A program made the translations under genes and the position numbers. Source: Trichodesmium erythraeum IMS101 (GTDB lineage: Bacteria; Cyanobacteriota; Cyanobacteriia; Cyanobacteriales; Microcoleaceae). From it: a stretch of DNA of 32,000 bases. Location: the NCBI RefSeq assembly GCF_000014265.1, contig NC_008312.1, positions 6,660,001-6,692,000 on the forward strand, given 5' to 3'. Positions within the stretch are counted from its first letter, which is position 1, and the number at the start of each line of letters is the position of its first letter. Positions 2,737-31,969 of the stretch are shown here, in pieces. The notes below the pieces were generated by a model, which did not search any database, was not told the DNA's origin, and worked only from the letters and a program-made list of their open reading frames with translations.

Positions 2737-2988
2737 ATGTCAATTAACGATGATTTTCTATACCCTCGCAGTCGCTATTATGGTAATTTTAGTCCGGAAA
2801 ATTTAGTATTTAATGCTAACTTACAAGAATTTTCTCAGGAAGTTAGTTTTATCTGTGGCTTAGAAACAGGTGGGAAAATTTCTCAACAAGAAGCTTACTG
2901 CCAACTGAAGAAGCTTTGGAAAAAGTTAAAAAAGTCTAGGAAAAAGTTAGGTATCGGTGAAAATGATCAGAATAGTTCGGAGGAATAA
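2737..2988 (+). CDS. Small conserved cyanobacterial hypothetical protein
   Basis: I chose the internal ATG at 2737 (MSINDDFLYPRSRYYGNFSPENLVFNANLQEF..ETGGKISQQEAY..). The upstream part of the 2632 ORF is an AT-rich low-complexity read-through. The sequence resembles small cyanobacterial proteins I recall with FLYPR..Y.G.F.PENL.FNANLQEF. Confidence 0.5.
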   Translation: MSINDDFLYPRSRYYGNFSPENLVFNANLQEFSQEVSFICGLETGGKISQQEAYCQLKKLWKKLKKSRKKLGIGENDQNSSEE

Positions 2989-3037
2989 AATATTTGAAAT
3001 AAGTAAAAATGTTGAGGAAAAATATGTAATATAATAT

Positions 3038-3137
3038 GATCAGGACTTACGCACTGACTGCCATATCAAGTAGGGGATACAGACAATTTACTACCTACAG
3101 ATAGCGTATTATCTATGAGTTTGCCTAAGTCCTGATC
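3038..3137. mobile_element. MITE-like ~100-bp element with 16-bp terminal inverted repeats
   Basis: gatcaggacttacgca (3038-3053) pairs with tgcctaagtcctgatc (3122-3137), 15/16 complementary. The terminal CAGGACTTA motif is shared with the 20771..21512 element. Confidence 0.5.
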
Positions 3138-3613
3138 ACAAAAAATCAAAACTTATAAACCATAATGTAAAGATATAGTAATTTCCACAGTTTCACAGTT
3201 TACTGGTATAATAATAACGATGGGAAAACCATTTGCGGATATCTTTTTGGGTGACTTATAACATAGTAGAGATAGAGGAATAAAAGCCTGATTTTAACAT
3301 ACCCTTTTACCAATAACATGTTTAATTGGTTAATCTGCAACAAAAGTTTAACGTTCATGATATATTCTCAGCAAGTCTTCACTTTTGAACAGAGCGATCG
3401 CTTGAAGCAAAGTATGAGGTTTAACAACAAAATATTTCCACTTGCTTATCTTCAGTCTGTCACTTCTCTGATATTTAATCAATTCCTTGATGAATATTCT
3501 GGCATAACTCTTGTTAAATTTGAATATAAACTGATGTAGCATTACGAGGCAAGATATTAGCAGGTTAAGGTGGAATAAGAGAGACAAGAACAGAGTAGAT
3601 AACCAGATACCCG

Positions 3614-3960
3614 ATGCCAGCAACCTATAGCCATTATTGGCGACAAAAAGCGATGGAATTTGTTGACAATGGCCAAAGCTAGAGGGAAGTTATCCGGAAT
3701 TTCGGTATCAGTAGAAATACTGGTAGTGCATGGATAAAAGGCAGAAAAGCAACAGGAGAATACAAAGCTTTGACAAGATTTTAGAAAGGATGTCACCGGA
3801 AAATCAAAGACTTAGAACAATTCGGAGAGTTTGTGAAATATAGTGGTCACATTATCCAGGAGAAATAGCTCAACTGTGGGAAGAGAAACTCAGACAGCAG
3901 AATGGTGGCGATGATCTGAAAAATTTGGGAATAATTTTGGAAAAAAAACTTGGTAGTTCT
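3614..3960 (+). pseudogene. IS630-family transposase, N-terminal HTH part with in-frame stops
   Basis: MPATYSHYWRQKAMEFVDNGQS*REVIRNFGISRNTGSAWIKGRKATGEYKALTRF*.. resembles the MPAPYS.DLRQK....G......FGISRNT...W IS630 N-terminus. There are at least 4 stop codons. Confidence 0.6.
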
Positions 3961-4268
3961 GATATATGTAGTGATAAGTTAATATAATTGATTAGTTCTT
4001 GACATTATTAAAAATTTGAAGATTCAATTATTGGCGATCGCTACATATAATCAGCTATCAAATTATCAGGAATTAACCCCAGGTATTCGGACTTAAATAT
4101 ACTATTATCTCATCATAGTAATTGTCAAAAAAATCTCTATAACTCAAATGTCAAATCACCAACTAATCTATACTATGTTTAATAGTAATATTATGGTCAA
4201 AAATGGTACTATTCACAACAAAAAACCAAAATATTAATCTCAAAATTGTCAAAGAAATCATATTAGTA

Positions 4269-17429: not shown

Positions 17430-17498
17430 GTAATAAATTGAGGAAATAGTAATAGTAAATTAGAGGTAATAAATTGAGGAAATAGTAATAGTAAATTA
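17430..17498. repeat. Perfect 33-bp direct repeat x2 (period 36 bp)
   Basis: gtaataaattgaggaaatagtaatagtaaatta occurs at 17430-17462 and again at 17466-17498, separated by gag. Confidence 0.9.
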
Positions 17499-27851: not shown

Positions 27852-28076
27852 CTATATATAGTAGTTATAGTTAAGTTCTATAAACCTGGTATTTTCCAAA
27901 GTGTAAGTAATATCATGCCCGGTTGAATATTTAAAGGTAGGATAATTATGGCATAAGGCTCTCTGGCTCTCGGCAGGAGGATAGAATTGGCGCTTGCCAC
28001 CAGAATTTTTTTTTGATGAGTAATTATCCGGACATGATATAACCAAAGGGAAAAAAGGATAAAGTTTTTTGATCAC
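27852..28076 (-). CDS. Hypothetical 74-codon ORF overlapping the stop of the kinase-WYL gene
   Basis: The GTG start overlaps the upstream TGA as GTGA (28073-28076), an arrangement typical of translational coupling. I recognise no homolog, and the composition is not obviously protein-like. Confidence 0.3.
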   Translation of the reverse strand: MIKKLYPFFPLVISCPDNYSSKKNSGGKRQFYPPAESQRALCHNYPTFKYSTGHDITYTLENTRFIELNYNYYI

Positions 28077-30226
28077 TGATCATAAACTTCAACAATACCT
28101 AACCCAATTTCATAAACACTATCGATTAATTCATCTGGTTTTTTTACTTTTACATGACCGCCAAACCCAATAACCCAACTTAAAAAACTCACATCTTCTA
28201 TACACCAACAAGGTAACTCTACTCGAAACCGATAAGGAAAATGTTTATTTTTTGTACCTTCCAAATCAAAAATTTTTTCATATTCCTTCTTCTGGATAAA
28301 ACTACTACCTTGAGGAGGAGGTGACATTTTCAATGTTCCTGATGGAAACAGTTTAGTTTTTTCACATACAAACTCAAATTTCTCCTGATTAAACCACAAC
28401 TCAACTGTTACTATTACCTCCTTTTTTTTCTTCTTGTCTTTACTTAAAAATTTACTTTGATCCTCAGCTTTATAACCTAAAAATATCCCAAAGCTGGCAT
28501 CTAAAAGTTTTTGTAACCGTTCTAATTTTGAGCGCTGTTTTTCTGGGCAAGACTTTCCTAAATCTTGACTAATACGTAAGCGATCTAAACGTTCAAACCT
28601 GAATAAGCCATTGAAAGTACCCCCCTCATATTCAAAACCTAAATACCAAGCATTATTAAAAAATACTATCTGTAATAACCGAACAGAAAACTTTCCTTCT
28701 TCACCTCCACTAAATTTTCCTTTGCCTTTTAACCGCTCTAACTCGACTAATTTTCCATGAATAATAAATTCTTCAATTTGATCAAGTTTCCGAGATAATA
28801 CATTCTCATCAACGAACTCTAAGTCGATCATTGATTTATGAGCGATCGCTCTAATTGGATAAGGTTTTTCAATGTTAATTTTAGAAGAAATCATCCGTTG
28901 ACAAAACTGGTCATAAGTAGATAAAGCCATCGGATCTTCTATACTTTTAACTTGCCCTTGTAATATATCCTGCAAACGTTTTAATTGCTCCTGGGACAAA
29001 ATTCCTGTCCCGGCAAAATAACCACGTCGCATGGGAAATTCTGGCAATATATGAAAGGGTTTGAGAATATATTCCACATCCTTGCGAAATTTGTCTCGAC
29101 AGTTGCCTCCTATTCCTGGTTGTTTGGATAATTCTTCTGCAAAAATGTCTAAACTTTTTTGATCGTCGTTTCTGAGAAATGGTCGGTTTAAGATCAAACG
29201 AATGGCGGTTATTAACCTTTTAAACGGAGCAATATCTGAATAAGGATGGGGAATGATGTCTTGCTCTGAATTGTTTTCACTTCTCGCTTTTATCTCCTTC
29301 CCTTTTTTTCTTTTAAGGGGAAGATCAGATGTTCCATTTTTCTTTTTCCCCCTTTTTGTCAGGGGTTGGGGGGATATTTCCTGACGTAATATTGCCGGAG
29401 TAACAGTTTGTCCTTCTGCTACGATGCCGTTTTTTTCTAACCAAGCTAAGTCAGTAGCGATCGCTTCTCTGTCTGCATAAACTTCTCCTTTTAATAAGGC
29501 TATAACTGCTACTATTTCTGCTAAAGCATCTGGAAATTCTGGTACTTCTTTAAATATAGCAATTAGTATATCGGGTTCTGTTTGTTCTAAATTGCCAAGG
29601 CCTGGATATTTAATGAATAGGGCAATTAAATGCATGAGGCGCTCGAAGTCTAGGAGTCGGGAATAGGAATGAAATTCTAGGCACGAGAGACGGTTTTGGC
29701 GGTTAACGCTGCTGCGGGTTAGGGAGTCAATTTTTTCCTGTATTGTTTTGGGGTTAAAGTTAGGTTTTTGAAGAGTATGTACTGCTGCAAAGCCTTCTGC
29801 TATTATGGGCTGAAAGTTTTTCAGGGATAGAAACATTTTTTTGACAGTAGTTTCTGGTACTTTACGAGTCCGTTGTTTATTCCATTTTAGGCAGGTAGGG
29901 AGAGAGGTTTTTAGATGCCATGCTATCCATGCACAGTTTTTTTGGGGTAGTTTCTTTAGTAAGGCTATGCGATAGGGGCGTATGGCATTGGTGGCATCGT
30001 AAATGATGGGGATACCTGCTTTGATGCTTTGGGTAATTTGCTTGAGTAAGGTGGCTTCTATTTCCCTCCATTCTCCTTGGATGGTTTCGTTGCCATAGAG
30101 TTTGGAGCGTATTGTGTCTGTAGAAATGATGGTATAATCTCCTAATGTTGACAGTTTGGTGGCAAAGGTTGATTTCCCTGATCCTGGGGGACCGATGAGG
30201 AAGTGACATATTAAAGGTTTGTTCAT
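28073..30226 (-). CDS. Fusion protein: PNK-like P-loop kinase (AAA_33-type), wHTH, Lys-rich linker, second wHTH-like region, WYL domain, WCX-like C-terminal domain
   Basis: Residue numbers are from the TTG at 30253. Walker A GPPGSGKST is aa 21-29 (nt 30167-30193). IIYDATN is at aa 83-89. The lid RTRKVPETTVKKM is at aa 128-140. A wHTH-like segment ..ADREAIATDLAWLEKNGIV ends at aa 278. The linker KRGKKKNGTSDLPLKRKKGKE is at aa 300-320. The WYL core ..FSVRLLQIVFFNNAWYLGFEYEGG..FRFERLDRL has WYL at nt 28640-28648. The C-terminus ..FRVELPCWCIEDVSFLSWVIGFGGHVKVKKPDELIDSV resembles a WCX domain. The ATG at 30226 (MNKPLICHFLIGPPGSGKS) is preferred, and the ORF track starts at TTG 30253. Confidence 0.85.
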   Translation of the reverse strand: MNKPLICHFLIGPPGSGKSTFATKLSTLGDYTIISTDTIRSKLYGNETIQGEWREIEATLLKQITQSIKAGIPIIYDATNAIRPYRIALLKKLPQKNCAWIAWHLKTSLPTCLKWNKQRTRKVPETTVKKMFLSLKNFQPIIAEGFAAVHTLQKPNFNPKTIQEKIDSLTRSSVNRQNRLSCLEFHSYSRLLDFERLMHLIALFIKYPGLGNLEQTEPDILIAIFKEVPEFPDALAEIVAVIALLKGEVYADREAIATDLAWLEKNGIVAEGQTVTPAILRQEISPQPLTKRGKKKNGTSDLPLKRKKGKEIKARSENNSEQDIIPHPYSDIAPFKRLITAIRLILNRPFLRNDDQKSLDIFAEELSKQPGIGGNCRDKFRKDVEYILKPFHILPEFPMRRGYFAGTGILSQEQLKRLQDILQGQVKSIEDPMALSTYDQFCQRMISSKINIEKPYPIRAIAHKSMIDLEFVDENVLSRKLDQIEEFIIHGKLVELERLKGKGKFSGGEEGKFSVRLLQIVFFNNAWYLGFEYEGGTFNGLFRFERLDRLRISQDLGKSCPEKQRSKLERLQKLLDASFGIFLGYKAEDQSKFLSKDKKKKKEVIVTVELWFNQEKFEFVCEKTKLFPSGTLKMSPPPQGSSFIQKKEYEKIFDLEGTKNKHFPYRFRVELPCWCIEDVSFLSWVIGFGGHVKVKKPDELIDSVYEIGLGIVEVYDQ

Positions 30227-30412
30227 TTGTGGTAGCGGTGTTAAAAATATCAAGTTTTACACTATTAAACTTTTGTTTGAAAGAGTCTGAAGACATAGAC
30301 TCACCCCTAATTTTTTCCCTTGAGGGAGACTTTGTTTGGAATGTCCTTAAAACATTTATACAATTAATACTCTTTTAGCCTGCTAATTATCAAGAAAAGC
30401 TATCGGCTAGTG

Positions 30413-31064
30413 TTAATTGCTTAATTATTGAAGTTTTACCTAGATTTAAAAAATTTTTTTTATTTTTGGTATAACTAATTCTTTGGCAATGGGCATAATT
30501 TTTACAGAAAAATAGATAGTTGTCACTCGCATAATTTTACATAATAATGATTGCGGTTGTCAAAAAAAATATGCTATTTTAAAAATGTCAAAAAAATTAA
30601 GCAAATTATCAAATATGTAATCTAAGAATAGAAACTTTTCACTCGCATATATTGTCAATTCCTTAATTATTGAGGTTTTAGCTAGATTTAATTTTTTTTT
30701 ATTTTTGGTATAACTAATTCTTTGGAAATGGACGTAATTTTTACAGAAAAATAGATAGTTATAACTCGCATAATGATACATAAAAATGGTTGCGGTTGTA
30801 AAAAAAGTATGGTATTTTAAAAATGTAAAAAAAGTCAAGCAAATTATCAAATATATGATCTAAGAACATAAACTTATCACTCGTATAACTTTACATAATA
30901 ATGATTGCATTTATTAAAAAATGATGCTGCTTTCAGAATATTGAGAAAAAAATTAGCAAATTATCAACGACATTATCTAAGAATAAAAAACTTGTCTCCC
31001 GCATAAAATTATATAAGAAGAATTGTGATTCTCAAAAATGATGCTATTTTCAGAATATTGATAG
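30413..31064. repeat. Tandem repeat array: about six units of 115-124 bp, organised as a 242-bp super-repeat
   Basis: 30421-30662 aligns with 30663-30900 at high identity (ttaattattga.gtttta.ctagattta...ctaattctttgg.aatgg.c.taatttttacagaaaaatagatagtt...). Sub-units begin with (c/a)actcg(c/t)ata at about 30524, 30640, 30764 and 30878, and a degenerate one begins at about 30996. Confidence 0.85.
30534..30563 (-). promoter_or_regulatory. Putative sigma70 promoter in the proximal repeat unit, facing the kinase-WYL gene
   Basis: On the minus strand: TTGACA (30563-30558), 18 nt, TAAAAT (30539-30534). The predicted start is about 275-300 nt upstream of the kinase-WYL start codon. Weaker versions recur in the distal units. 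Confidence 0.4.
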
Positions 31065-31098
31065 TTTAGTTCGGGGTTTATACAATTTATTTGGGATA

Positions 31099-31452
31099 GA
31101 AACTCTGAGCAATGAACAGTTTCATCAGGCTCTAAAAGAGGGTCGAGGAGATTTTATAAAAACTTGATTAATTAACCCTAATTTAGCGAAGAAAAATTTA
31201 GATGGTATTAACCTAAGTGGAGTTAATTTAAATAAGGTTAATCTTAGGGAAGCGTCTTTAATTAAAGCGCAGTTACATAGGACTAAAATGGTAGGAGCTA
31301 ATTTAGATTCGGCTAATCTCAAAGGAGCTCATCTTAGCCGAGCTAATTTAAAAGATGCTCAAGCATCTTGGGCAGATTTAAGAAATACAAATATGAGCAA
31401 TACTGTACTTCATAATGCTAATTTAACCGGTGCAGATCTGGATAAGTCATAA
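31099..31452 (+). pseudogene. Pentapeptide-repeat gene with no start codon and a premature TGA
   Basis: The frame reads ..LSNEQFHQALKEGRGDFIKT*LINPNLAKKNLDGINLSGVNLNKVNLREASLIKAQL...ANLTGADLDKS*. An in-frame TGA lies at 31165-31167, and there is no in-frame ATG before 31288. Confidence 0.6.
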
Positions 31453-31458
31453 TCAATT

Positions 31459-31836
31459 TTGGAAGCTAAAACAATGTTTGCCAGAGAAACAATATTTAAG
31501 GATTATAAAAGCGCTGCTTATAACCTAGAAGCATCTAAGGCTATTGAAAACAGACTGAAGAATCTAATTTTATTAATAGCTATTTCTTATGCAATTAGTT
31601 CATTTCAAGGAAAAAAAATTAAAAATAAAGGGCTTCAAGAATATATATCAAGAACTAATGAAAGAGGTAGAAAAGAAAGAAGACATAATAGTTTTTTTGT
31701 GGGATTATCTAGGATTTATTGGGCAATAAATGATAATTTTATCTGGGAATTAGTAGAACATTTAATGAGTCTTAATCCTCATAAATTTCTCTATTATCGT
31801 AGGGAAATAAAAGCGATGAATACAGTGGTTAATTAG
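31459..31836 (+). pseudogene. IS4-family transposase, C-terminal fragment only
   Basis: ..ETIFKDYKSAAYNLEASKAIENRLKNLILLIAISYAISSFQGKKIKNKGLQEYISR....RHNSFFVGL.. matches the C-terminal block of cyanobacterial IS4-type transposases. The catalytic N-terminal two thirds are absent. Confidence 0.7.
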
Positions 31837-31930: not shown

Positions 31931-31969
31931 GGGGTGCAGTGCGAGCACTCTGCCCTGGCACTGCACCCC
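31931..31969. repeat. GC-rich perfect 12-bp hairpin
   Basis: ggggtgcagtgc (31931-31942) pairs with gcactgcacccc (31958-31969) around a 15-nt loop. It lies in an otherwise very AT-rich context, 95 nt after the transposase fragment. Confidence 0.6.

Follow-up and report, generated by a model that had tools for sequence, protein, structure and literature searches.

A tandem array of two unit types upstream of a polynucleotide-kinase/WYL gene in Trichodesmium erythraeum: a possible duplicated promoter region

We analyzed a stretch of 32,000 nt from Trichodesmium erythraeum IMS101 (contig NC_008312.1, positions 6,660,001 to 6,692,000; hereafter the window, to which all coordinates refer unless stated otherwise). 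Directly upstream of a gene encoding a 717-aa protein with polynucleotide-kinase and WYL modules (the kinase-WYL gene, 28073..30226, minus strand, ABG53330 / WP_011613656) lies a tandem array that occupies 30399–31064 and points at this gene. As judged from its sequence, the array would represent the AT-rich promoter or regulatory region of the kinase-WYL gene, duplicated in tandem and fixed, in which the unit termed B1 is the likely working promoter; we regard the case for this interpretation as evenly balanced. The array is a fairly ordinary, slowly decaying duplication.

The existence of the array, as proposed in an original prediction made from the bare sequence, is borne out both by Tandem Repeats Finder and by the positions of a recurring junction motif. 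Tandem Repeats Finder reported one repeat at 30411–30887 (period 239, 2.0 copies, 87% matches, score 745) and a second one at 30838–31061 (period 117, 1.9 copies, 76% matches), and a separate repeat search of the window recovered the same two families. The long copies of 239–242 bp are thus 87% identical and not near-identical 242-bp repeats as had been stated. A periodicity of about 120 bp and the junction motif were both found again as predicted, but the units are of two unrelated kinds, A and B, rather than of a single kind. Read away from the gene the layout is A1-B1-A2-B2-B3-B4, with B4 truncated. A units measure 116–124 bp and B units 114–118 bp, identity among array units ranges from 62 to 91%, and the guanine-plus-cytosine (GC) content of the array is 23% compared to 32.7% for the 32-kb window. 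No homology between A and B was detectable: the B-unit profile misses the A units, and global alignments of A with B gave z = 2–4.6, as against z = 10–13 for B with B.

All units are assigned to the minus strand, that of the gene. The gene-proximal unit A1 (30399..30523) was delimited by an A-unit profile match at 30522–30399, which places the start of the array at about 30399; it shares 81–91% identity with A2 and has no junction motif on the side of the gene. B1 (30524..30639) is the B-type unit closest to the gene and matches the B profile with E = 1e-24. A2 (30640..30763) is supported by the repeat search, the junction motif and the A-unit profile, and is followed by B2 (30764..30877), B3 (30878..30995) and B4 (30996..31064), of which only the gene-side 69 nt are left. 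The junction motif, CACTCGCATA on the plus strand at 30524..30533 (TATGCGAGTG on the gene strand), recurs at 30640–30649, 30763–30772, 30878–30887 and 30996–31005 and is the sole sequence common to A and B units. Its degenerate form [CA][AT]C[TC]CG[CT]ATA has no other copy in the 32 kb, and the motif core occurs once more elsewhere in the window. Between array and gene lies a unique proximal region or 5’ leader (30227..30398, minus strand), only the last ~60 nt of which align with distant orthologues. A profile search of the window and of the other loci covered found no extra copies of the B unit. The pattern CTTAGAN8TTGATAATTTGCT gave isolated chance matches only in genome, metagenome and viral contigs, and the genome scan also missed the IMS101 locus itself; a dispersed repeat was rejected as far as the window, these other loci and the single matches go.

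Within the array we found sigma-70-type hexamer pairs with 16–18 nt spacing at homologous positions of the B units and on the strand of the kinase-WYL gene. B1 carries TTGACA-N18-TAAAAT (30534..30563, minus strand), which matches the consensus at 11/12 positions and is predicted to start transcription inside the junction motif, some 300 nt before the ATG. The corresponding site in B2, TTTACA-N18-TATCAT (30773–30802, minus strand), is decayed in IMS101 and reads TTGACA-N18-TATAAT (12/12) in the sister clade, while that of B3, TTAATA-N18-TAAAGT (30888–30917, minus strand), is weak. These three elements had been listed in the original prediction and are all present, but a further 11/12 site in the degenerate distal unit B4, TTGAGA-N16-TATAAT (31008–31035, minus strand), had been overlooked. 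B units hold sites of 9–11/12, and A units hold none of such quality. Sites of at least 11/12 on the gene strand number two in the T. erythraeum clade and three in the T. thiebautii-like clade, compared to a mean of 0.03–0.05 in shuffled sequences, none of which (0/300) matched the observed count; on the opposite strand of the array there are none. The excess over chance is confined to this class and this strand, as at a threshold of at least 9/12 the region holds an unremarkable 12 sites where 8.3 ± 2.6 would be expected. Of all B units, B1 and B4 resemble each other least, and still both retain an 11/12 match at equivalent positions; a shift of the -10 element by two gives them different spacers, of 18 nt in B1 and 16 nt in B4. 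The scan for sites of at least 9/12 detected no gene-strand site in 30227–30412, and between B1 and the ATG (30226) that strand carries only two 9/12 sites, one at the B1/A1 junction and one inside A1. Since B1 is the nearest strong candidate and no promoter-like site lies between the array and the ATG, a leader of about 300 nt is implied.

Exact-protein look-up found 40 Trichodesmium contigs for comparison. Among the T. erythraeum clade, 16 distinct upstream haplotypes were obtained. All 16 share the six-unit architecture, are colinear and differ in length by single-base indels only. Their 20 variable positions in 1250 nt include 12 in the 652-nt array, and six of these 12 fall into B2. The T. 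thiebautii-like clade (L039–L042) has an orthologous array, B4-B3-B2-A2-B1-A1, in which B4 is complete at 118 nt. Between the two clades, whose coding sequences diverge by 0.9–1.5%, orthologous units are more similar than paralogous ones; therefore the array is older than the clade split and has undergone little concerted evolution. In B1 the gene-side ~45 nt, comprising promoter and junction motif, show no difference between the clades and the other ~70 nt show seven. The retained part of B4 is likewise free of differences, and B2 shows 11, including changes to both hexamers in IMS101. The truncation of B4 belongs to a larger rearrangement: 31062–31177 measures 116 nt in the T. erythraeum clade and corresponds to 2009 nt with two open reading frames (ORFs) in the T. 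thiebautii-like clade (L039 1161–3169). A deletion of about 2 kb in the T. erythraeum clade took the distal half of B4 and also the beginning of a pentapeptide-repeat gene. What remains of that gene is a 5’-truncated pseudogene (31178..31452, plus strand) abutting the truncated array end; its frame read back to 31093 crosses a TGA stop. One contig, L006 (GCA_023356555.1, Trichodesmium MAG_R01), looks chimeric or recombinant: its kinase-WYL and nitroreductase genes lie within 0.1–0.2% of IMS101, and in its array and far intergenic part it agrees with the T. thiebautii-like L039 (3.6–6% different).

B-like units were also detected upstream of kinase-WYL orthologues on three marine metagenome contigs (L054, L055 and L003) that represent two more distant lineages, with conserved orientation. 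L054, assigned to a lineage X, carries two units and L055 one, both with proteins 69% identical to that of the window; L003 begins within a B-like unit and encodes a protein of 74% identity. In Okeania-like genomes, a clustered regularly interspaced short palindromic repeat (CRISPR) array stands in this place instead. A blastn comparison of the IMS101 array with L054 gave E = 2e-20 at 68–74% identity. Besides the B units, only the last ~60 nt before the ATG can be aligned with the distant lineages, the remaining intergenic sequence being replaced. Copy number differs between deep lineages, with one unit in lineage Y, two in X and four B plus two A units in Trichodesmium. In L054 the stretch separating the B-like units from the kinase-WYL orthologue contains a perfect 16-bp hairpin (GGACGCTTGCATAACA ... 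TGTTATGCAAGCGTCC, 2196–2240), which lacks a U-tract on both strands and has no Trichodesmium counterpart.

These features suggest a possible origin of the array. An ancestral B segment would have been bounded on both sides by a direct repeat of about 10 nt resembling TATGCGAGTG. The single unit of L055 has the junction motif on both flanks and thus suggests short direct repeats as mediators of amplification, which may have proceeded by unequal recombination or slippage between them. B units would have been amplified first and a B+A block of ~239 bp afterwards, giving B4-B3-B2-A2-B1-A1-gene. Each B unit would then bring a sigma-70-type promoter in the same position and aimed at the kinase-WYL gene. 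With the stretch from the units to the gene free of terminators, B-unit transcripts would be expected to continue across A1 and the unique leader into the coding sequence. B1 is the most likely working promoter because it is closest, matches at 11/12 and is unchanged between the clades. The distal copies may be redundant and drifting, with B2 having lost two consensus positions in IMS101. The arrangement resembles the tandem promoters and duplicated upstream regions of other bacterial genes in its serial sigma-70-type sites on one strand before one gene, the most proximal being the best preserved. It differs from them in that the sites are predicted and stem from a recent tandem duplication of a ~117/239-bp block whose distal copies appear to be decaying.

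Several observations weigh against a duplicated promoter region. Divergence of the array between the two Trichodesmium clades amounts to 6.0%, as compared to 3.1–3.6% for other intergenic sequence and a synonymous divergence (dS) of 0.04, so that the array as a whole is without detectable purifying selection and diverges at or above the neutral level. The units, having arisen by copying, cannot be counted separately, which reduces the promoter excess to roughly two independent cases, one of the B1/B2 type and one of the B4 type. Conservation between lineages is highest in the columns of the spacer (CAATCATTATT) and of TTATGCGA and not in the variable hexamers; a plain promoter would be expected to behave differently. 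The B-like units of lineages X and Y contain no site of at least 9/12, and the genes of these lineages carry proximal promoter candidates of their own at -108 and -166. Purifying selection on the B units had been deduced from their alignability over such distances and was withdrawn: with dS to the distant lineages of only 0.41–0.44 (pS 0.32–0.33), about 67% identity is expected at neutral sites, equal to the synonymous identity of ~67%, and the 68–74% identity to lineage X is close to this expectation and is no proof of selection.

The original prediction had put forward a tandem array of small RNA genes, an operator repeated in series and a variable-number tandem repeat (VNTR). In the first case every B unit would be a small gene under a promoter of its own, and its RNA, unstructured or cut to the length of one unit, could act in trans or target the neighboring kinase-WYL protein. 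Promoter-like sites in each unit on one strand only would fit this idea, as would the polynucleotide-kinase and WYL domains of the adjacent protein, both of which act on nucleic acids, and the position of orthologues downstream of CRISPR arrays, which are likewise transcribed repeats. Cyanobacteria offer precedents. NsiR1 of heterocystous cyanobacteria is encoded by 12 tandem copies, each with its own promoter, upstream of hetF (PMC4030482), and shares with our array the ~100-bp scale of tandem units in a filamentous cyanobacterium, the adjoining regulatory gene and the promoter-like element per unit. T. erythraeum IMS101 itself has an array next to Tery_0080, in which seven units of 736–973 bp and more than 96% identity, spanning over 6 kb and containing a duplicated gene fragment, give rise to the most abundant RNA of the cell (PMC4143802). 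This second array resembles ours in being a non-coding, lineage-specific tandem array of the same genome with one promoter per unit and an adjoining gene. The searches for RNA features nevertheless gave no positive support. No Rfam family reached its gathering score in the window, and in 30200–31300 even a cut-off of E <= 10 returned only chance matches (CRISPR-DR51/DR66 and snoRNAs, E of 1–5). Neither strand folded better than dinucleotide shuffles (z = +0.81 and +1.80). RNAalifold on 12 B-type units from four lineages found no consensus structure on the gene strand and just a 4-bp helix without compensatory change on the opposite strand, so that the proposed check for folding and covariation turned out negative. 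No terminator-like site lies inside the array, the sole one in 30100–31500 being at 30314–30329, and the DIF motif TCCGGA, located near -35 in NsiR1-type promoters, is missing from 30399–31064. Unlike NsiR1, the array has two unrelated unit types, belongs to another organism group, adjoins a different gene and is known here from sequence alone. In contrast to the Tery_0080 array its units measure 114–124 bp, are 62–91% identical and contain no gene fragment, and no transcription start site from the region is among the 23 most expressed ones listed in Table 1 of PMC4143802. Divergence at or above the neutral rate also speaks against small RNA genes, which we consider an unlikely explanation.

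A repeated operator appears slightly less probable still, and it is compatible with a duplicated promoter, the two not being exclusive. Five copies of TTATGCGAGTG, with or without the CAATCATTATT block, would bind a transcription factor, possibly the PafBC-like part of the kinase-WYL protein, for cooperative autoregulation. What stands of this proposal is the fivefold motif at 115–124 bp spacing, almost absent elsewhere in the window, and the WYL-related neighbor, whose protein aligns with PafB/PafC and matches DriD. Conservation across lineages peaks in the columns of the motif and of the block upstream. Lineages X/Y and Z have direct copies of the motif as well as an inverted one (CATTCGCATAA), found at -123 beside a proximal promoter candidate; taken together with the proximal promoter candidates of X/Y, these columns and the inverted copy leave room for a protein-binding role. 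Dyad symmetry is absent from the motif, though, which is also missing upstream of all Okeania-like, CRISPR-linked orthologues, and Pfam finds no helix-turn-helix in residues 173–717 of the protein. The motif moreover coincides in part with the predicted start site, and its conservation may for that reason merely mirror the duplication junction. About as improbable as the small RNA genes, in our estimate, is functionless DNA, that is a neutral tandem duplication in a genome with 40% non-coding sequence whose promoter matches are inherited copies of one chance or ancestral site. The divergence of the array favors it, as do the hits accumulating in the hexamers of B2, which holds half of the array polymorphisms, the deletion that cut the distal unit without visible consequence, and the abundance of non-coding repeats for which T. 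erythraeum is known (PMC4143802). It would leave unexplained why B1 and B4, the B units that differ most, both kept strong promoter matches at the homologous site, with spacer lengths that compensate, why the promoter part of B1 is unchanged between the clades and why B units were retained at dS ~0.4 although the other intergenic sequence had been replaced; moreover, some promoter has to drive the gene, and no nearer one was detected. A VNTR or contingency locus, or a decayed CRISPR array, we consider highly improbable. The different unit numbers of the deep lineages are in line with a VNTR, but within T. erythraeum an expanding or contracting repeat is contradicted, and a fast one ruled out, by the single architecture and identical unit number of all 16 haplotypes, and the units are too unlike (62–91%) for it. 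The CRISPR array at the same place in Okeania-like genomes would suit a decayed array; the window shows no short repeats alternating with unique spacers, as had been correctly noted, and whole units of 114–124 bp are repeated instead of repeats of 24–48 nt. A decayed CRISPR array was also rejected for lack of similarity to the Okeania-like repeat CTCTAGTGCTTCACCCGAAGCGGAATTAATGGAAAC, which scores 16 in local alignment with the array (17.1 ± 2.5 in shuffles) and has no match in the window within three mismatches.

The kinase-WYL protein deserves separate consideration. Its label, taken over from the original prediction, holds for both parts. The N-terminal ~160 residues match the polynucleotide 5’-kinase domain of Clostridium thermocellum Pnkp by sequence (E = 2e-7) and by fold (TM 0.78, rmsd 2.0; mean pLDDT of the structure model 81). 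For the rest of the protein, Foldseek returned PafB/PafC over ~400 columns (E ~ 3e-7) and also DriD, consistent with a PafBC/DriD-like WYL-WCX module. Pfam recognized AAA_33 and a weak WCX domain, and the PADLOC model for CRISPR-associated WYL proteins matched with 1.6e-18. At all six Okeania-like loci, whose proteins are 66–73% identical to that of the window, a type III-type CRISPR array with the repeat CTCTAGTGCTTCACCCGAAGCGGAATTAATGGAAAC lies upstream on the same strand and ends ~200 nt to 1.4 kb before the kinase-WYL gene (L002 3990–5790, L050 ~2950–4095, L051 18–332, L052 114–2150, L053 1–106 and L049 3498–3591). Beyond the array of L002 there are RAMP genes. The repeat is absent from all Trichodesmium-like loci. 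T. erythraeum has been reported to lack cas genes, and type III-B systems have been reported in T. thiebautii, Hydrocoleum and Okeania (PMC9950141, PMC4143802). The polynucleotide-kinase/WYL fusion may be encoded by an unrecognized CRISPR-associated gene. One could further imagine the B-unit array as a functional stand-in for the Okeania-like CRISPR array, its transcripts being ligands or substrates of the kinase-WYL protein. We think this very unlikely; the argument for it is purely positional, with CRISPR arrays upstream at 6/6 Okeania-like loci, B units at all Trichodesmium-like ones and zero overlap between the two. Both kinds of array share position and orientation relative to the orthologous gene and are repeated, so that transcription would run toward the gene; the array of the window has neither 36-nt repeats nor unique spacers nor similarity to CTCTAGTGCTTCACCCGAAGCGGAATTAATGGAAAC. 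If the stand-in were real, a repeat-RNA/kinase-WYL module would have persisted in T. erythraeum despite the loss of all cas genes. Upstream of two Okeania orthologues we also noticed GC-rich tandem and palindromic repeats (CCTCCAGTCCCCCCCTTTCCAAGGGGGG...) with periods of 33, 36 and 108 bp (L049 4306–4975; L050 4120–4330 and 4776–4990), which in L050 flank a copied 5’ piece of the kinase-WYL gene on both sides; the region upstream of this gene thus seems prone to repeat expansion.

Other candidate features of the array were rejected. A small ORF starting at the junction ATG of the A units (MRVTTIYF..., 27–28 aa) shows four non-synonymous versus one synonymous difference between A1 and A2 and a 1-nt frameshift deletion in the sister clade, and a 96-aa ORF at 30560–30850 is low-complexity junk. 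A Fur box in CAATCATTATT / GATAAT was dismissed, as two matches of at least 13/19 compare with 1.2 expected (P = 0.3). Curved DNA from helically phased A-tracts was dropped for want of a 10–11 bp periodicity.

In the leader of the kinase-WYL gene, antisense to it, a hairpin TTTCCCTTGAGGGAGA is followed by CTTTGTTTGG (30309–30342, plus strand). It is the only terminator-like site of the region and weakly matches CRISPR-DR66 (E = 1.3); it is probably not functional, since it is destroyed in the T. thiebautii-like clade. Further away, a perfect 12-bp GC-rich inverted repeat, GGGGTGCAGTGC ... GCACTGCACCCC, at 31931–31969, ~95 nt downstream of the ORF 31459–31836, is unique in the window, stands out against the 33% GC of the genome and may be a terminator or the end of a repeat element. 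At 17430–17498 a 2-kb AT-rich intergenic region (24.5% GC) harbors a 36-bp unit (GTAATAAATTGAGGAAATAGTAATAGTAAATTAGAG) that is perfectly repeated in tandem, with 1.9 copies. Among the further genes of the window, ilvC (ABG53327), GroEL2 (ABG53320) and a LysR regulator (ABG53325) are exact IMS101 proteins, as is the kinase-WYL protein.

For the biology of Trichodesmium, the array accounts for ~650 bp of an unusually large non-coding fraction. B1 provides a concrete candidate promoter for an uncharacterized polynucleotide-kinase/WYL regulator, and otherwise the array matters little beyond annotation. The kinase-WYL protein itself, whose Okeania-like orthologues are encoded at the trailer end of type III CRISPR arrays, emerges as a candidate CRISPR-linked or nucleic-acid-sensing factor, which survives with a different upstream repeat in Trichodesmium, including T. 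erythraeum with its lack of CRISPR-Cas.

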